A stretch of 43,855 nucleotides of DNA from Candidatus Dadabacteria bacterium (GTDB lineage Bacteria > Desulfobacterota_D > UBA1144 > Nemesobacterales > CSP1-2). The notes under the pieces were generated by a model. It saw only the letters and a program-made list of their open reading frames with translations. It was not told where the DNA came from and did not search any database. How positions within the stretch are numbered: position 1 is the first letter of the stretch; the number at the start of each line of letters is the position of its first letter. The position numbers and the translations under genes were made by a program. Below are positions 3,571 through 15,332 of this stretch, piece after piece. The DNA lies in the NCBI GenBank assembly GCA_023250035.1, contig JAHFBK010000002.1, forward strand, positions 1 through 43,855. The letters run 5' to 3'.

Positions 3571-3878
3571 TGTTTGTTCTTGGGAATCTTGTTGGAGCCT
3601 TAGCGATAGTGCTTCACTATTTGCTTAATGTCTATATGTGGATTGTGATTATAAGGGCTATAATCTCATGGGTAAGCCCTGATCCATATAACCCGATTGT
3701 CCGTTTCCTTTATAGGGCAACTGAACCAGTGCTTGGATATGTAAGGAGAATTGTTCCGTCCCTGGGTGGAATTGATGTATCACCGATTTTGGTTCTCGTG
3801 CTAATTGTATTTTTAGATCAATTTCTAGTTGAAACCATAACAGAACTTGCATTTAAGTTAAAGGCAGGGATCCCTTAG
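3570..3878 (+). CDS. yggT: YggT family membrane protein
   Basis: IISWVSPDPYNP, TEPVL, GGIDVSPI; TAATG coupling with proC. Confidence 0.93.
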   Translation: MFVLGNLVGALAIVLHYLLNVYMWIVIIRAIISWVSPDPYNPIVRFLYRATEPVLGYVRRIVPSLGGIDVSPILVLVLIVFLDQFLVETITELAFKLKAGIP

Positions 3879-4172
3879 ATGTCTTATTCAAAGGAAGAAT
3901 CTGAGGTAACGATCGAAGTTCGGGTTCAACCTAAATCATCATGTGATGAGATTTTCGGACTTCAGAATGGCAGATTCAAAGTGAAAGTCACTGCTCCCCC
4001 AGAAGATGGGAAAGCGAATGAGAGGCTTATAGAGATCATTGCGAGAGCGCTCGGAGTTTCAAAATCATACGTTAAGATAGTTAGAGGAGAGACATCGAGA
4101 ATAAAGATTTTGAAAATTAAGGGTGTAAATAAGGATAAATTGGATTCGTTTATGAAAAGATTTTCTAATTAA
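3879..4172 (+). CDS. yggU: DUF167/UPF0235 (YggU) protein
   Basis: VRVQPKS, VTAPPEDGKAN, IVRGETSRIK. Confidence 0.93.
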   Translation: MSYSKEESEVTIEVRVQPKSSCDEIFGLQNGRFKVKVTAPPEDGKANERLIEIIARALGVSKSYVKIVRGETSRIKILKIKGVNKDKLDSFMKRFSN

Positions 4173-4221
4173 TTGTTACTAAAAAGCCTTATTGCTCAAT
4201 CTCCTATGTTTTTTAATTAAT

Positions 4222-4249
4222 GTAGAGACGCAATTAATTGCGTCTCTAC
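4222..4249. repeat. GTAG-type REP, perfect 28-bp palindrome
   Basis: gtagagacgcaatt|aattgcgtctctac. Confidence 0.85.
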
Positions 4250-4274
4250 GTAAGTTGCAGGGATATTAGCAGGC

Positions 4275-5051
4275 ATGCTTAGCGCTTTCGTCAAAGGGTT
4301 AAAAATAAACTATATCGCAGGAGAAGCTTTAGAGAAGTCACGTCCGAGCATTTTAATGATTCACGGTGCGGGACAGAGCAGTCTCACTTGGGAATATCAA
4401 GTAGATGAATTAAAAAAACACTCAAGGTTTAATCTTTTTATCCTAGATCTTCCCGGGCACGGTAAGTCCGAGGGAAGCGGTTTGAGTAGCATTAAAGAAT
4501 ACAGCGGCTTCATAAAGGATTTTACTGACACTCTTGCTTTAGAGAAACTCATACTTGTAGGACACTCGATGGGCGGTGGTATAGCACAGGTTTTTACGAT
4601 TGATTATCCCGACACGGTCTTTGCTTGTGTTCTAGCAGGTACCGGAGCAAGGCTCCGTGTTGCTAAGGAAACCCTAGAAGCCGTTAAAAACAACTACGAG
4701 GCATACTGCAAAATTGCCCCGACAAGAGCCTTTGGAAGCTCATCGCCCGAGGATCTAAAGAGAAGGTTTGTAAACGGAATTCTTAGAACCCCACAATCAG
4801 TTGTACACCTGGATTTTATAGCATGTGATGAGTTTGATTTTACGAATGAGGTCGAGAAGATAAAGGTTCCAACTCTAATTATTTCTGCAACAGAAGACAT
4901 ATTAACTCCGGTAAAATATGGTGAATATTTGCACAATAGAATCGAAGATTCAAAATTCCATGTTATTAAGGATGTAGGACACTTTATGATGCAAGAGAAG
5001 GCAGACGAGTTTAACCGGGTCTTGCTTGAGTTCTTGATTTCCCTCTGTTGA
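4275..5051 (+). CDS. Alpha/beta hydrolase
   Basis: IHGAG oxyanion motif, DLPGHG, GHSMGG nucleophile elbow, ED and GH triad positions. Confidence 0.92.
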   Translation: MLSAFVKGLKINYIAGEALEKSRPSILMIHGAGQSSLTWEYQVDELKKHSRFNLFILDLPGHGKSEGSGLSSIKEYSGFIKDFTDTLALEKLILVGHSMGGGIAQVFTIDYPDTVFACVLAGTGARLRVAKETLEAVKNNYEAYCKIAPTRAFGSSSPEDLKRRFVNGILRTPQSVVHLDFIACDEFDFTNEVEKIKVPTLIISATEDILTPVKYGEYLHNRIEDSKFHVIKDVGHFMMQEKADEFNRVLLEFLISLC

Positions 5052-7649: not shown

Positions 7650-10238
7650 ATGCCTGTAGATACACCTATGATTAAGCAGTACATGAAGATTAAAAAGCGA
7701 TACCCGGATGCCATACTCTTTTTTCGCCTAGGGGATTTCTACGAGATGTTTTTTGAAGATGCTAAGACAGCGTCAAAGATTCTTGGCATTGCCCTTACCT
7801 CTAGAAATAAATCTGAGAAAAATTCTGTTCCACTATGTGGTGTTCCATACCATAGCGCTGAGCCTTACGTTGCGAAACTCCTTCAACACGGTCATAAGGT
7901 AGCCATATGCGAACAGGTAGAGGACCCTAAGTTTGCAAAGGGGATTGTTGAAAGGAAGGTTATCAGAATTCTTACACCTGGAGTTATTCTTGATACGGAG
8001 AAGCTCGATTCTAAATCAAATAATTTCCTTGCAAGTATATACTTCGATGGGAAATCTTACGGTTTTTCATATGCTGATATATCTACTGGTGAGTTCAGGA
8101 CAACTTCGTTTTCTACCCTTGATGAACTCTTAGACGAACTTGCTCATCTTGAACCTAAAGAGATTCTTCTTACGGAAGAACTTTATCAAAATGATGAACT
8201 GTCTTCCTTTTTTTCACTCGGTTGGGATCCTCTTCTTACTAGAATCGATTCATACATCTGGGATTTGGATAGAGCGAGAGAGCTTTTAGAGGAAAAATTA
8301 GCCTCGAAAACATTAGAAGCCTTTGGGCTTGAGAATCACCCGGAATCAATTGCCGCTTGTGGGGCACTTGTTCATTATCTCAAAGAAATCCAGATAGAAG
8401 ATAAGCCTCCCTTAGAGGATCCATTATATTATCAAACTACCGATTATCTTTTAGTTGACGAATCTACAAAGAGAAACCTCGAGATTGTTAGAACAATTCG
8501 GGGTGAATCAGAAAGTGGTTCACTTTTATGGGTTCTTGATGAGACACTAACGGCAATGGGAGGGAGACTTCTTAAGAAGTGGATAAATTATCCGCTTATA
8601 GATATAGAAAAGATTAGAGAAAGGCTCAATGCCGTTGAAGAACTCAAAGAAAAACCAAGCTTTAGAAAAATGGTCAGGGGCGCCTTAAAAGAGATAAGCG
8701 ACATAGAAAGGCTTATTGGGAGAATATCTACTACCTCCGCAAGACCTAGGGACCTAGGAGCACTCAGGGATTCGTCATATTTTATCTCTAATATAAAAGG
8801 TATTCTGAGCGACTTTCAGTCCACACCACTTGCTAGAATTAGGGATGTTCTTGACGATTTAGCTGATATAAGGGAACTACTAGAGAGTTCGTTAGTTGAT
8901 GAGCCTCCGATTTCTTCTCGTGATGGAGGAATAATTAAGGACGGTTTTAACAGTGAGCTTGATGAGCTTAGGGTTACAAGGCGCGACGGAAAGAGGTGGA
9001 TATCAGCGCTTGAGACGAAAGAGAGGAAATTAGCAGGGATCAACTCGCTTAAGGTCGGATACAATAAAGTATTCGGTTATTACATCGAGGTTACAAAACC
9101 GAACCTTCATCTAGTTCCGGAGAATTATATTAGAAAGCAGACGCTGGTAAATGCGGAGAGGTTTGTTACTCCTGAGCTTAAGGAGTATGAAGAAAAGATT
9201 CTTGGGGCTGAAGAGAAGATTCTAGAACTTGAAAGGGATCTTTTTAACGAGATAAGGGAAAGGGTAGCGAAGGAATCAGAGAGAATAAGACAGACTGCTT
9301 CGCTGATAGCTGAGCTTGATGTCCTTTCTTCTCTCGCAGAGGTTGCTGATAAATACAATTACACTAAACCTGATGTAAGCGACTCAGGGATTATTGACCT
9401 TAGGGAAAGCCGGCATCCTGTTGTGGAAAGGATGGATCTAGGGGAAAGATTTGTATCAAATGACATAACGCTAGACACAGAAGAAAACCAGTTTCTCATA
9501 ATAACTGGTCCTAATATGGCTGGGAAGTCCACTCTCATTCGTCAGGTTGCGCTAATAGTTCTTATGGCTCAGATTGGAGGCTTTATTCCAGCAAGGGAGG
9601 GAAGGATTGGAATTGTAGATAGGATATTCACACGCGTTGGTGCTTCTGATAATCTAGCACGGGGACAATCAACATTCATGGTGGAGATGGTAGAGACCGC
9701 TTACATCCTGAGACATGCCACGCAAAGAAGTCTAGTGGTGCTTGATGAAATAGGGAGGGGAACAAGCACATTCGATGGGATGAGTATTGCGTGGGCTGTA
9801 GGAGAATTCCTCCACGATTTAGGATGTAGATCCCTATTTGCTACACATTACCATGAGCTTGCCCAGCTTGCCATCACAAAACGAAGGGTTAAGAACTACA
9901 ATGTCTTTGTAAAAGAGGACAAGGGAAAGGTCGTGTTTCTAAGAAAGCTCATTCCAGGCGCGGCTAGCCATAGCTATGGAATTCAGGTAGCAAGGCTAGC
10001 AGGGGTTCCTGAAAGGGTTCTTAAGACTGCGCGCGAGGTTCTATTCAAGCTTGAGAAAGCGGAATCTAATCTTGGAAGTGCTATTCGCGGCGGACAGCTT
10101 GGACTTTTTGAGAAGAAGGAAGATGAAATAGGTGATGAGGTTTTAGAGGAGATTAACAAACTCGATCCTAATTCTATGACCCCGCTCGAAGCACTCTCTA
10201 AGCTAGCTGAGATTAAAGGTAAGTTAGAGAATGAATGA
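7650..10238 (+). CDS. mutS: DNA mismatch repair protein MutS1
   Basis: GDFYEMF, GPNMAGKS, STFMVEM, LDEIGRGTST, FATHYHEL, SYGIQVA; QLGLF beta-clamp motif. Confidence 0.98.
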   Translation: MPVDTPMIKQYMKIKKRYPDAILFFRLGDFYEMFFEDAKTASKILGIALTSRNKSEKNSVPLCGVPYHSAEPYVAKLLQHGHKVAICEQVEDPKFAKGIVERKVIRILTPGVILDTEKLDSKSNNFLASIYFDGKSYGFSYADISTGEFRTTSFSTLDELLDELAHLEPKEILLTEELYQNDELSSFFSLGWDPLLTRIDSYIWDLDRARELLEEKLASKTLEAFGLENHPESIAACGALVHYLKEIQIEDKPPLEDPLYYQTTDYLLVDESTKRNLEIVRTIRGESESGSLLWVLDETLTAMGGRLLKKWINYPLIDIEKIRERLNAVEELKEKPSFRKMVRGALKEISDIERLIGRISTTSARPRDLGALRDSSYFISNIKGILSDFQSTPLARIRDVLDDLADIRELLESSLVDEPPISSRDGGIIKDGFNSELDELRVTRRDGKRWISALETKERKLAGINSLKVGYNKVFGYYIEVTKPNLHLVPENYIRKQTLVNAERFVTPELKEYEEKILGAEEKILELERDLFNEIRERVAKESERIRQTASLIAELDVLSSLAEVADKYNYTKPDVSDSGIIDLRESRHPVVERMDLGERFVSNDITLDTEENQFLIITGPNMAGKSTLIRQVALIVLMAQIGGFIPAREGRIGIVDRIFTRVGASDNLARGQSTFMVEMVETAYILRHATQRSLVVLDEIGRGTSTFDGMSIAWAVGEFLHDLGCRSLFATHYHELAQLAITKRRVKNYNVFVKEDKGKVVFLRKLIPGAASHSYGIQVARLAGVPERVLKTAREVLFKLEKAESNLGSAIRGGQLGLFEKKEDEIGDEVLEEINKLDPNSMTPLEALSKLAEIKGKLENE

Positions 10239-10336
10239 TGCAAGATGCAAGAAGAATCATGTATCGTGAACGACACATCATATATCATTTTACTATTAGT
10301 GTAAATTCGTGCTAATTAGTGGTTAGGTAATTAATT

Positions 10337-10696
10337 ATGATCGATAAAAAATCCCTCGGACAAATGGGTGAGGATATAGCATCCAAGGCTCTAAAAAAGG
10401 ATGGATACCGCATTATCGAGAAAAATTTTAGATGCAAGCAGGGTGAGATAGACATCATCGCTGAGCAAAAGGGGGTTGTTTGCTTCATAGAGGTTAAAGC
10501 CCGTTCATCTGAAAACTTTGGACTGCCGGAAGAGGCTGTTACAAGTTGGAAACAGCGAAGACTCTTGGCTGCGGCTTATGTGTATCTAGAAAAAAAGAAA
10601 ATCAAATCAAAAGATTTGCGCTTTGACATAGTCTCGGTTGATCTTACGAATGAAATGGCTAGAATCTTGAAGAACGCCTTTGAAGTGAATTATTAG
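10337..10696 (+). CDS. yraN: YraN/UPF0102 endonuclease-fold protein
   Basis: GQMGEDIA, GEIDII, FIEVKAR, RFDIVSV. Confidence 0.94.
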   Translation: MIDKKSLGQMGEDIASKALKKDGYRIIEKNFRCKQGEIDIIAEQKGVVCFIEVKARSSENFGLPEEAVTSWKQRRLLAAAYVYLEKKKIKSKDLRFDIVSVDLTNEMARILKNAFEVNY

Positions 10697-11018
10697 GTTG
10701 AGAATACGGTCAGGGTTTTAATCGTACATTTTTCTTAATCAAGATTATCGTATCATAATACAATCCCACAATCTTCCGAATCTCAAAAATGTGTTTTACT
10801 TAGTTATTCAATTCTTTGGCATTAGACCAGAGGAGTAGAATATATGAAAACCTTATATTTCAAGACCTGATCTCATTTTCTCTCCTTGATATAAAGCCAA
10901 GAACTGACCCCTTCTTTTCCTTTGGTCTTTAATATTAAGTTTAATAGAATCATATCTACTAGAAGTAAGTGCTAAAGGATACTTATGTAAGATTTAAGAA
11001 TTAAATAGGGAAGAGTGA

Positions 11019-11441
11019 CTACCTATGTAATTTTTTTGGACGCCTTAGTATTATAGCTGGGTATCCGTAGTCTGTATTTTTATCCAAACTGAGAACATAA
11101 TCTCTTAAAATATTTAATTCATGCTCGACATCGATATATTGTCCTAGTTTGCTGATCCATTTACCATTTTCCAATTGTCGTGCGGCATGAGTTGGTTCCC
11201 CATTATCGTCAACGAAAATTACAATTTTTTCAAAACAAGAATCAAGTTCGTAATTATCACAAGGCACGTAATCTAGAGTAGAAAAAGCCTGTATAAAAAC
11301 TTCTAAGGTTACATCTTTTGAAATACCTTTTGGCCAATATGAGTCACCTGCAGGCCACCACCATCGAGTGTCATCCCCGGCTGACAAAGCAATGCAATTA
11401 TAAGTTGGTGTTTCAGGACTACGCGCAATAACCCCGATCAT
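11019..11441 (-). CDS. Uncharacterised protein with a putative Cys-His dyad (DUF7689-like)
   Basis: SPETPTYNCIA, WWWP..YWP, THAARQ, WISKLG motifs; family name recalled from memory. Confidence 0.65.
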   Translation of the reverse strand: MIGVIARSPETPTYNCIALSAGDDTRWWWPAGDSYWPKGISKDVTLEVFIQAFSTLDYVPCDNYELDSCFEKIVIFVDDNGEPTHAARQLENGKWISKLGQYIDVEHELNILRDYVLSLDKNTDYGYPAIILRRPKKLHR

Positions 11442-11447
11442 TCATTA

Positions 11448-11873
11448 TTATTCAATATATCCGTGCTCTTTACCCCATTTTAACCAAGCTTCTCTAATTT
11501 TCATGAGATTACCTCGATCTTCTAAAGCCACGGGATCCTCCCCTGTAATGGCTCTAAGAGCCCAGGACCAGTGATTAGGTTCACGCTCAAATTCTCTAAG
11601 GATCAAAGGAATAACATCTTGTCCCATACCTATTATACGTTGGTAAGATGGATGAGTAACAATTTTTGTAGTTGATGATAGCAATAACACTTCTTTTTTC
11701 CAAGTTCTCATTAAGGTGTAAAATTTTTCTTTAGTGCTTTGTCTTGATGCAGGGAAACAAAAATGTTCAGCAAGTTCTGACATTTTTTTTAAAATAAAGT
11801 AAGATTCTATACTAATCCCAGCTGATTGATTGCCTCCAGAAGTAAGAGAATAATTAATTGCGACTCCACTCAT
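11448..11873 (-). CDS. Uncharacterised helical (HEAT-like) protein
   Basis: HPSYQRIIGMG, PLIL, HWSWALRAITGEDPV, WLKWG; ATGA overlap with the upstream gene. Confidence 0.7.
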   Translation of the reverse strand: MSGVAINYSLTSGGNQSAGISIESYFILKKMSELAEHFCFPASRQSTKEKFYTLMRTWKKEVLLLSSTTKIVTHPSYQRIIGMGQDVIPLILREFEREPNHWSWALRAITGEDPVALEDRGNLMKIREAWLKWGKEHGYIE

Positions 11874-12628
11874 TTAAACAACTCCTTTGTTTTATTTGTT
11901 AAATTCTTAAAAAAGATATCATTCTTAAATTTTCGCAATCTCAGCATAATATTCCATATTTCTTCATCCGCGGGATCTAACGTTACAATTTTAAATACAT
12001 CGATATCAAATATCAATGGTAATAATTGTTGATCGTTCTTTACTTCTGGAGATTCGGTTGCTTCTATTATAATCGCCTCAGATTCTAATTCCTTATTTTG
12101 TATTACTAATCTCATCACAACCTGAGTTAGAGCATCCGGTATCCCAGGAGCAATTTCAGGAACTGTTAGTATATATTCTTTAAGATCTTTTATAGGAAGT
12201 GGTATTTCAATCCGATTAATATAACGCAGGGCTAGTCTAGTTACATTTTTAGGTTTGACAATCTTGACATAGTAGTTCCAGAGCTCTCTTGCCTCGGTAC
12301 TAAAAACCTCCCAATTTTCATACGGTTTTAATTTGTTAAATGTAAAGCCATCTAATCTGGATTGAACAACTTTTGTATTATCAGAAGAACGAAAAAGATA
12401 TCCCTCTATTGCTCCCGAGTGTTCAGAAATTTGTGGCCCAATACCAGGTTTTAGTTCAAATTGAGTTTTCAAATGAAATTTTTCTTCTTTTTGGGGGAAA
12501 CGGGTTTTAACTTCCTCATGAAATTCACCAACAGTATTAAGGTTTACTTCCTTTGGAAGGGTAACTCGTATATCTATCAAGGCTTCAGTTATTGGCGGAT
12601 TATGAAAGATTTCGTATTCATTGATCAT
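11870..12628 (-). CDS. TIGR04255 family protein
   Basis: NPPITEALIDIR, GYLF, PYENWEVF, RLALRYINRI, IFDID, KNDIFF. Confidence 0.8.
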   Translation of the reverse strand: MINEYEIFHNPPITEALIDIRVTLPKEVNLNTVGEFHEEVKTRFPQKEEKFHLKTQFELKPGIGPQISEHSGAIEGYLFRSSDNTKVVQSRLDGFTFNKLKPYENWEVFSTEARELWNYYVKIVKPKNVTRLALRYINRIEIPLPIKDLKEYILTVPEIAPGIPDALTQVVMRLVIQNKELESEAIIIEATESPEVKNDQQLLPLIFDIDVFKIVTLDPADEEIWNIMLRLRKFKNDIFFKNLTNKTKELFK

Positions 12629-12942
12629 ATTTTTCTATTAGAAGGTTTTAATCTGAATTAAAGCTTTTTATGCAAATTATAGCATTCATGATATTCGATG
12701 CAAATAATTTGATAATAATAGTAGATTGTGGGCAGGGTCTTGGATTGTGAATTATTTTTATTAACTATCTTGGTTATTGTGCCATTGTGCAAACCCAAAC
12801 CCTACCAAAATCTAGAAGCGTGTACACATAATTTAAGTGCGCATCCTGCATCAAAGATTCCTTATCAGTACGAACGAGATTAAAAAATTTCCACTTTAAA
12901 ACGAATATTTAATGATTATATTGAAAGTTAAGGTGATAAGAT

Positions 12943-13176
12943 ATGGACAAACAATTTGATGGCTATACAGCTATACAAACTGCGGAGGGTTTCCACGTGG
13001 TGTTTCACGATTCTTCGAGAAACCCACTAGATGTAAAATTTAACGATTTTCAAGAATTCGCAAATAAATACAGCCAGGAAATATTGGCTGGAAAACTTCC
13101 AAAACTTTCTGAACAAGAAGCAGTTTTGCTTTCGCTATGGGAGTTAATGCTTATACCAGCTAACACAATACATTAA
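12943..13176 (+). CDS. Hypothetical 77-aa protein
   Basis: ATG with SD aaggtg; protein-like composition. Confidence 0.6.
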   Translation: MDKQFDGYTAIQTAEGFHVVFHDSSRNPLDVKFNDFQEFANKYSQEILAGKLPKLSEQEAVLLSLWELMLIPANTIH

Positions 13177-13290
13177 GGTAGTGAGATCGGGGTTCTATCC
13201 ATATATATCGAGATTTAGGTCAACCTTATTTAAACTGACCTTTTCTTGAATAGGTTTGTAAATAGATAGCATCCTACGTCATTATTACTC

Positions 13291-13319
13291 TTGACACCTT
13301 CGGGATTGATGCATATCTT
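13291..13319 (+). promoter_or_regulatory. Sigma70-type promoter of groESL
   Basis: ttgaca-17 nt-tatctt directly before the CIRCE. Confidence 0.75.
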
Positions 13320-13323
13320 ATAC

Positions 13324-13350
13324 TCAGCGCTCATCTAACTAGAGTGCTAA
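13324..13350. promoter_or_regulatory. CIRCE element (HrcA operator)
   Basis: tcagcgctc-N9-gagtgctaa versus TTAGCACTC-N9-GAGTGCTAA; 2 mismatches, both in the left arm. Confidence 0.88.
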
Positions 13351-13383
13351 TTCCATTTATATACCAATCCAGGAGGTAAAACC

Positions 13384-13674
13384 ATGAATGTAAGACCACT
13401 TCACGATAAGATTTTAATCAAAAGAATAGATGCCCCCCAGATGACAAAGGGCGGAATTGTCATTCCGGATACTGTCAAGGAAAAGCCACAGGAGGGAAAG
13501 GTAGTAGCTACTGGTAAAGGTAGGATTCTAGAGGATGGTAAGGTTGTTCCATTAGCGGTGAAGAAAGGAGACAGGATACTCTTTGGCAAATATGGGGGAA
13601 CAGAGATTAAACTCGAGGGTGAGGATTATATAATCCTAGATGAAAATGAGGTTTTGGCTATAATCGAAGAATAA
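13384..13674 (+). CDS. groES: Co-chaperonin GroES
   Basis: RPLHDKI, TKGGIVIPD, KEKPQEG, GKYGGTE; SD aggagg. Confidence 0.98.
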   Translation: MNVRPLHDKILIKRIDAPQMTKGGIVIPDTVKEKPQEGKVVATGKGRILEDGKVVPLAVKKGDRILFGKYGGTEIKLEGEDYIILDENEVLAIIEE

Positions 13675-13682
13675 ATTTTTAA

Positions 13683-15332
<1,650 letters not shown>

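Follow-up and report, generated by a model that had tools for sequence, protein, structure and literature searches.

A three-gene locus of a Dadabacteria genome as a candidate tripartite toxin–antitoxin-like module headed by a TIGR04255 protein

Our analysis of a 43,855-nucleotide (nt) stretch of a Candidatus Dadabacteria genome (assembly GCA_023250035.1, contig JAHFBK010000002.1, positions 1 to 43,855; hereafter the window) points to a candidate tripartite toxin–antitoxin (TA)-like module, encoded by three consecutive genes of the minus strand (Table 1). In the reading that we favour, gene 3, a member of the Pfam family DUF7689 with a predicted papain-like fold, would be the effector, gene 2, a small helical protein, would be its dedicated neutraliser, and gene 1, a member of the NCBIfam family TIGR04255, would be a head that is added to the pair and acts through a short N-terminal tag of gene 2. 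Weighing what the sequences and their comparison suggest, we give this full mechanism a probability of about 0.5; the gene structure, the fold class, the strict pairing of genes 2 and 3, the use of TIGR04255 with various toxin families and the tie between tag and head are what the data show, and toxicity, neutralisation, direct binding between head and tag and any role in defence are what we infer from them. The family matches of genes 1 and 3 indicate that they are real conserved genes rather than chance open reading frames (ORFs).

The pairing of genes 2 and 3 is almost certainly obligate. A pattern scan for DUF7689 loci, run on one genome per species, gave at least 581 stretches, of which the best 80 loci were kept. 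In these loci, which span at least 15 phyla, a gene 2 homologue lies directly upstream of DUF7689 on the same strand in 78 cases; in the other two (L009 and L019) the contig ends upstream of DUF7689. The distance from the gene 2 stop to the first possible gene 3 start is no more than 20 nt in 76 of 80 pairs. In a sample of 401 Gammaproteobacteria the gene 2 profile matches 2 of the 400 genomes scored, and DUF7689 is present in 3 of the 401. Two of these, both published, are the genomes that also match gene 2, and there the two genes are neighbours; the third is unpublished, its match is fragmentary, and it was not used. Two small, adjacent and co-oriented genes that are kept as a pair and occur sporadically have the layout of a type II TA system. 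The original prediction had taken all three genes as one unit. This holds for genes 2 and 3, which strictly co-occur, and does not hold for TIGR04255, which precedes gene 2 in only 31 of the 80 DUF7689 loci and heads unrelated pairs elsewhere. In most genomes the pair stands without TIGR04255 and so does not depend on the head. Three tandem gene 2–DUF7689 pairs, again without TIGR04255, stand side by side in a Planctomycetaceae genome (L035:4609-7781).

Gene 2 belongs to no family in Pfam, NCBIfam, PADLOC or PHROGs; an exhaustive profile-free search nevertheless found 8496 cluster representatives at E ≤ 0.001, 5875 of them at E ≤ 1e-10. In the alignment a C-terminal core of about 95 residues is conserved, including invariant Trp residues, and the N-termini before it differ in both length and sequence; all five Trp residues of the window protein fall within the core. 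The model of gene 2 is all-helical and confident from residue 46 onwards, with pLDDT of at least 94 over residues 51–140 and poor values over residues 1–20. Foldseek found no match to it, and an exhaustive fold search gave weak HEAT/ARM-like rows (Z ≤ 5.8) that lie below the noise level of helical proteins. Atlas searches with genes 1 and 2 reached just unnamed or TIGR04255 clusters, and sequence searches of solved structures returned nothing useful for genes 1, 2 or 3. The public call for gene 2 (P0121) has 111 amino acids (aa) and begins at Met31. We favour the 141-aa form because of its Shine-Dalgarno sequence (AAGGAG at 11887-11882, 8 nt 5' of the ATG), its coupling to gene 1 through a 4-nt ATGA overlap at 11873-11870, where TGA is the stop of gene 1 and ATG the start of gene 2, and because its first 45 residues are conserved. 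A 6-nt gap (11447-11442) separates gene 2 from the ATG of gene 3.

Gene 3 matches DUF7689 (PF24738) with 120 bits (cut-off 22.6, E 1.2e-34), its residues 7-129 aligning to profile positions 3-114 of 118. The motifs on which the original prediction had rested its papain/NlpC-P60-like assignment are all there (YNC at residues 14-16, THAARQ at 84-89 and WISKLG at 95-100), and the assignment itself is borne out as far as models and invariant residues can tell. A word-indexed search gave 168 relatives among 177 candidates of similar length, and in an alignment of 42 sequences N15, C16, H85, D104 and H107 are invariant, together with several Trp, Pro and Gly residues. In the AlphaFold model (pLDDT 93.1, pTM 0.87) C16 sits at the first turn of a helix (residues 16-20) and H85 lies inside a strand (83-89). 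A cysteine at a helix start and a histidine on a strand, both invariant, are the hallmark of the papain-like layout. Fold comparison points the same way: among 48161 chains searched exhaustively, 13 were matched at Z ≥ 5 and none at Z ≥ 8, with the NlpC/P60 enzyme NlpC1 on top (6bim, Z 6.2, root-mean-square deviation 3.3, 91 residues aligned) and AvrPphB second (1ukf, Z 5.7, 3.8, 126 aligned). Judged by their titles, papain-fold enzymes make up the majority of the 50 structure matches listed, and include NlpC/P60 proteins, CHAP endolysins, staphopains, C39 domains, Tae3, Tse1, Josephin and viral deubiquitinases; a library of viral structures gives a similar picture, weakly. Foldseek against the PDB found nothing at E ≤ 0.001, and its top rows, all weak (E 0.17 and above), are NlpC/P60, phytochelatin synthase, AvrPphB and deubiquitinases. 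The gene 3 sequence itself has no match among solved structures at E ≤ 10. Taken together, the model and its matches make it very probable that gene 3 belongs to the papain-like fold class; its predicted chemistry could be that of a peptidase, an amidase, a deamidase or a transferase. DUF7689 is essentially a stand-alone domain, only two of 175 candidates being longer (266 and 277 aa). In the latter, P0318, a gene 2 core seems to be joined to DUF7689, at a junction that looks frameshifted, and P0091 (172 aa) is a DUF7689 protein with a C-terminal SEC-C metal-binding motif (PF02810).

TIGR04255 is, with high probability, a shared third component of TA-like operons. Gene 1 matches the family with 140.4 bits (cut-off 30, E 8.8e-41; residues 8-252 on profile positions 2-252) and has no Pfam family. 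Searched against solved structures, the TIGR04255 profile hit 9hnh_A alone (E 0.0014), an apparent repeat protein that we judged uninformative. In 35 sequences of the family E15, Y103, N138 and D208 are invariant, and Q89, R131, R135 and Y152 nearly so. The family is sporadic, just as the original prediction had stated: among 120 genomes of the window's phylum 28 have it, as do 48 of 401 Gammaproteobacteria (44 of 397 when four unpublished genomes are excluded). In the phylum set, many of whose 29 distinct loci come from one genus and are thus not independent counts, 25 loci are followed by a coupled gene of 100 aa or more, and 20 by two such genes. Among gammaproteobacterial loci, from which two belonging to unpublished genomes had been removed beforehand, a coupled downstream gene is present in 24 of 29. 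In both sets TIGR04255 is always first in the operon.

What follows TIGR04255 changes from cassette to cassette, and the last gene is in several cases of a recognisable family. It encodes a PIN domain in L105, L129 and L132 (31.4, 35.8 and 56.7 bits), a YhaV toxin in L142 (156 bits) and an HNH domain in L137 (31 bits); in L085 it is HEPN-like at 19 bits, under the cut-off of 22, and on a Vibrio parahaemolyticus plasmid it is annotated as a zeta toxin family protein. Some of the middle proteins have an Xre-type helix-turn-helix, which is above the Pfam cut-off only in L130 (25.2 bits). It is from this position within a recurrent three-gene architecture that we place DUF7689 in the toxin slot and gene 2 in the antitoxin slot. 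TIGR04255 also occurs on three plasmids, and a Crinalium plasmid and a P2-like Ralstonia phage record carry it together with coupled pairs. A FastTree phylogeny of 73 TIGR04255 proteins has at least 12 changes of the middle-protein family; the gene 2 type appears in five places on it, each of them required by well-supported branches.

A second TIGR04255 protein, 40% identical to gene 1 (E 5e-60), is encoded in the window's own genome on contig C68 (locus L082:1480-3132). Its gene overlaps one for a 170-aa protein by 4 nt, which is followed by one for a 128-aa protein, and the cassette adjoins a truncated phage-type integrase (L082:771-1265). By BLASTP the 170-aa and 128-aa proteins are unrelated to genes 2 and 3 (E 1.4 for the middle protein versus gene 2). 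Cassettes of this same type, with a middle protein that bears the motif 'NWDGYG' and a third gene of about 130 aa, recur among numerous relatives and are also seen in a gammaproteobacterium (L133) and in the Ralstonia phage record (L156). Weak, co-located matches to the PADLOC candidate PDC-M32A (E 0.0045-0.012, model positions about 270-340) were seen for three middle proteins of TIGR04255 cassettes, namely L089:2210-2707 and L091:980-1492, which are both of the 'WDGYG' type, and L110:821-1477.

In some loci without TIGR04255, proteins of about 227 aa without a family precede gene 2 and overlap its start in the same manner. One such family recurs in seven loci (with a broken copy in L062, the others being L005, L047, L059, L061, L077 and L078, at about 3700-4550 in each of these six). 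It has no Pfam or NCBIfam match and no detectable relation to TIGR04255 (hhalign probability 0.1), and it is possible that it serves as an alternative head protein. The gene 2 proteins that follow it also have a long N-terminus, of a different kind.

The link between TIGR04255 and gene 2 runs through the N-terminus of the latter. Of the 31 linked loci, 26 have a 4-nt overlap between the end of TIGR04255 and the start of gene 2, and in the linked gene 2 proteins the 45–55 residues before the core can be aligned. They share a small or hydrophobic start, a G-x-S/G-x-E/D-S motif, a helix and an HYxxPxSR-like motif. The extension had first been described as rich in Ser and Gly, and residues 1-45 of the window protein indeed contain 12 of these; it is no loose linker, and is better seen as a conserved tag that is tied to TIGR04255. 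The 47 loci in which TIGR04255 is missing hold 49 gene 2 ORFs, and a profile of this tag failed to match any of them, even with the threshold relaxed to E ≤ 10. Among the gene 2 proteins examined, and as far as profile comparison can tell, the tag is found only where TIGR04255 is present. The profile was also run against residues 1-80 of 45 middle proteins taken from further TIGR04255 cassettes, and four matched at E ≤ 0.1: L133 (1.6e-7, residues 1-46), L112 (0.0079), L082 (0.0082) and L135 (0.051). The L133 protein has a different C-terminal domain and is not matched by the gene 2 profile. One of 38 third genes matched, and the middle proteins of the plasmid and phage loci gave no match. In five random control sets the only strong matches were L083 (3.4e-15) and L099 (0.00017), both of them true gene 2 proteins that the random draw had included, and no other control ORF reached E ≤ 0.1. 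A natural removal of the tag can be seen in L075, which has neither TIGR04255 nor tag and whose gene 2 has 105 aa: it is 90.9% identical to L071 over 704 bp that span the gene 2 core and gene 3, and the similarity breaks at the junction between tag and core. On a poorly resolved gene 3 tree the presence of the head needs 15 changes.

With these elements a mechanism can be proposed. DUF7689 would be a cytoplasmic Cys-His hydrolase or transferase of the papain fold and would arrest growth by damaging a cytoplasmic target. Gene 2 would be its dedicated partner, made just before it by translational coupling, and its helical core would keep the enzyme inactive. TIGR04255 would be an add-on head acting via the 45-residue tag of gene 2; it might stabilise the neutraliser, or let go of it once the head is claimed by a competing trigger, for example a phage protein, and could then be a sensor. 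The action of the head is modelled on toxin–antitoxin–chaperone (TAC) systems of the SecB type. A three-chain complex prediction with genes 1 and 3 and with gene 2 as the partner gave scores of 0.84, 0.82 and 0.83, compared with 0.00 and 0.00 when the partner was replaced and 0.85 when gene 1 was replaced; by the rule set for these controls the result speaks neither for nor against binding, and a job of this kind cannot separate the interface of the gene 2 core with gene 3 from that of gene 1 with the tag.

The original prediction had drawn an analogy with the layout of TAC systems, and this appears apt, since TIGR04255 behaves as an accessory third component of TA-like operons. TAC systems are reported to combine a SecB-like chaperone with an antitoxin extension named ChAD (PMC5105189, PMC6377645), and the chaperone is described as recognising the addiction element of the antitoxin and a phage tail protein via similar patterns (10.1101/2024.02.24.581848). 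In both cases, as far as these sources describe the TAC side, one third protein is common to different TA families and is tied to a short extension on the protein in antitoxin position, and head and TA unit combine modularly; the TAC chaperone also doubles as a phage sensor. There are clear differences. Searches of Pfam and NCBIfam at E ≤ 1 gave no SecB family for gene 1. The gene 2 protein of the window carries its extension at the N-terminus, with the core reaching the C-terminus, whereas TAC antitoxins carry theirs at the C-terminus. The chaperone gene comes last in TAC operons, whereas the head gene of the window operon comes first. By analogy, then, the module is comparable to SecB-type TAC systems and is not a member of them.

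Other known systems resemble parts of it. Panacea, the hyperpromiscuous antitoxin domain of the NetFlax network (PMC10440598), is likewise described as one conserved component joined with many unrelated toxin families, the difference being that Panacea forms part of the antitoxin, as one of its domains, and TIGR04255 is a protein of its own; the main text of that paper contains none of the terms looked for on three-gene systems and on papain or cysteine-protease toxins. A precedent for a papain-like enzyme that poisons a cytoplasmic target is Cpe1, reported as an interbacterial protease toxin that cleaves GyrB and ParE (PMC12136450). Papain-fold toxins and hydrolases such as NlpC/P60 proteins, CHAP amidases and YopT/AvrPphB share with the DUF7689 model the cysteine at a helix start and the histidine on a strand. 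DUF7689 differs from them in being a minimal stand-alone cytoplasmic protein of 140 aa, with no signal or delivery domain, and in its own set of motifs (YNC, THAARQ and W-x-SKLG). A polymorphic toxin/immunity cassette has its toxin domain at the C-terminal end of a large secreted protein and its immunity gene downstream; as DUF7689 stands alone and its partner gene lies upstream, the arrangement is not of that kind either.

Several observations weigh against a headed toxin–antitoxin-like module. Of five genomes whose pair has no adjacent TIGR04255, four have no TIGR04255 anywhere in the genome. The fold scores of gene 3 are modest (Z ≤ 6.2), and values below 8 can mean merely a common arrangement. 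The tag profile matches 29 of the 31 TIGR04255-linked gene 2 proteins by construction, all 29 being in its training set, and the two others, L018 and L074, are unmatched. Similarity of the tag across cassettes is weak outside L133, also for the second copy in the window's own genome (E 0.0082 for L082), and on the gene 3 tree the tag-bearing forms cluster, so that these relatives are not independent and well-supported branches force only two changes of the head. Searches of 72,556 plasmids and of 50,697 phages gave no match to DUF7689, and none of the three genes has a match in PADLOC-DB 2.0.0 (0 families at E ≤ 1). The family median isoelectric point is 5.0 for DUF7689 and 7.3 for the gene 2 core (9.0 here), the reverse of the charges usual in type II systems, and no DNA-binding domain is recognised in gene 2 by Pfam or NCBIfam.

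Much of this would suit genes 2 and 3 as the two subunits of a non-toxic enzyme. One would be a cytoplasmic amidase, peptidase, deamidase or acyltransferase and the other a helical subunit for regulation or substrate adaptation; the enzyme would serve an accessory metabolic or stress function and take TIGR04255 as an optional extra subunit. Strict pairing and translational coupling would be expected of any such enzyme, an acidic DUF7689 with a basic gene 2 is unlike most type II pairs, and absence from the plasmid and phage collections and from PADLOC fits as well, as does P0318 if it is read as a fusion of the two genes. The gene 2 tail of P0318, however, diverges from the family, and a frameshift is as likely as a true fusion. 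A metabolic enzyme would also not readily explain the sporadic distribution, usually with one copy per genome and here on an insert that has no counterpart in relatives, the three tandem pairs of L035, the occurrence of PIN, YhaV, zeta and HNH proteins in the same slot of TIGR04255 operons, or the flanking genes, which vary by locus and include no conserved metabolic neighbours. We regard this explanation as unlikely, though worth keeping in mind.

About as improbable, in our estimate, is a TA-like pair in which TIGR04255 is an enzyme or regulator, modifying the tag or the toxin covalently or controlling transcription of the operon, rather than a chaperone or sensor. The invariant and nearly invariant polar residues of the family could belong to an active site or ligand pocket, and a constant first position in the operon would agree with such a role; on the other hand, TIGR04255 matches no known enzyme or DNA-binding family. 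That the tag tracks the head fits direct recognition, and a relation between enzyme and substrate fits it equally. Far less credible is that gene 3 is a C39-like leader peptidase which cuts the gene 2 extension at Gly-Gly in the maturation of a peptide. The sequence 'SGG' at residues 12-14 of gene 2 and C39 peptidase domains among the fold matches of gene 3 (Z 4.1-4.6) could be read in this way, yet Gly-Gly is not conserved in the aligned tags, tagless gene 2 proteins of about 100-113 aa still pair with gene 3, and no transporter lies nearby in the window; on these grounds the idea was rejected. A tripartite module with a TIGR04255 head is the explanation that we favour.

If it is true, the module gives a first functional frame to TIGR04255, to DUF7689 and to the unnamed gene 2 family with its 8496 cluster representatives. 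It would be a second, independently evolved case of an accessory protein with an addiction tag, so far known from SecB-type TAC systems. It would also provide a genomic rule, by which a coupled pair downstream of TIGR04255 predicts a toxin, and under this rule several unnamed third-gene families of about 130-170 aa become toxin candidates. More broadly, and with somewhat less than even confidence, we suggest that TIGR04255 may define a widespread, undescribed class of tripartite TA or defence systems, evolved independently of the SecB/ChAD TAC systems, in which the head would read an N-terminal antitoxin tag, control the stability or release of the antitoxin and possibly sense phage. Such heads would have been added to PIN, YhaV, zeta, HNH and HEPN toxins as well as to new ones, among which DUF7689 would be a new family of papain-fold toxins with a neutraliser family of its own that counts thousands. 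Full-text searches, which left supplements aside, returned no paper that contains TIGR04255, DUF7689 or IPR026349; supplements could list these families under other labels. The model can be tested, as head and tag are naturally removed (L071 versus L075) or could be swapped between cassettes.

The three genes form a small inserted island that has no counterpart between yraN and groES in three related genera. Matches to yraN and groES lie about 90-284 bp apart in G001, G004 and G007, genomes of other genera in the same family, versus about 2.6 kb in the window; in G004 the module is found at another place, on a contig of 2.1 kb. The flanks are on the plus strand, with mutS and yraN (7650-10696) on one side and groES and groEL (13384-15332) on the other. 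GC content is 0.33-0.37 across 10501-13000 compared with about 0.40 in the surroundings. The ORF list, the sequence and the GC content thus agree with the first description of three co-oriented minus-strand genes at these coordinates, joined by an ATGA overlap and a 6-nt gap in an AT-rich setting.

Table 1. Coordinates of the module, its parts and neighbouring elements in the window (gene limits from the ORF list)
Feature	Position	Strand	Remarks
Gene 1, 252 aa, TIGR04255, proposed swappable head	11870..12628	-	NCBIfam match
Gene 2, 141 aa	11448..11873	-	
Gene 2 residues 1-45, tag tied to TIGR04255	11739..11873	-	Conserved after TIGR04255
Gene 2 residues 46-141 and stop, Trp-rich all-helical core, proposed neutraliser/partner of gene 3	11448..11738	-	
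Gene 3, 140 aa, DUF7689, proposed toxin/effector	11019..11441	-	PF24738 match and papain-like model
Insert, about 2.6 kb	10698..13285		From yraN stop to groES promoter/CIRCE; carries the three genes and an unconserved 77-aa ORF
groES promoter (TTGACA), then CIRCE-like inverted repeat GCGCTC-N9-GAGTGCTAA	13291-13345		Conserved in G001; marks the right edge of the insert
Promoter-like TTTGCA-17-TATAAT with TG extension	12676..12704	-	About 48 nt 5' of gene 1; 10 of 12 consensus matches
77-aa ORF	12943-13176	+	Within the insert, divergent

Within and around the insert some minor features deserve mention. The inverted repeat in front of groES resembles a CIRCE element. The promoter-like site upstream of gene 1 is a consensus match only, in a region that gives 17 such sites versus 11.7 ± 3.7 in shuffles. 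The divergent 77-aa ORF was considered as part of the system and dropped, as it has no homologue in any of the loci fetched. An Rfam search of 10100-13500 found no RNA family. Between mutS and yraN, at 10237-10325, lies an interspersed repeat of about 95 bp, for which neither an Rfam match nor a stable fold (z -0.5) was found; copies of it are present in related genomes, and the window's own genome contains 10 matches at 73-83% identity.

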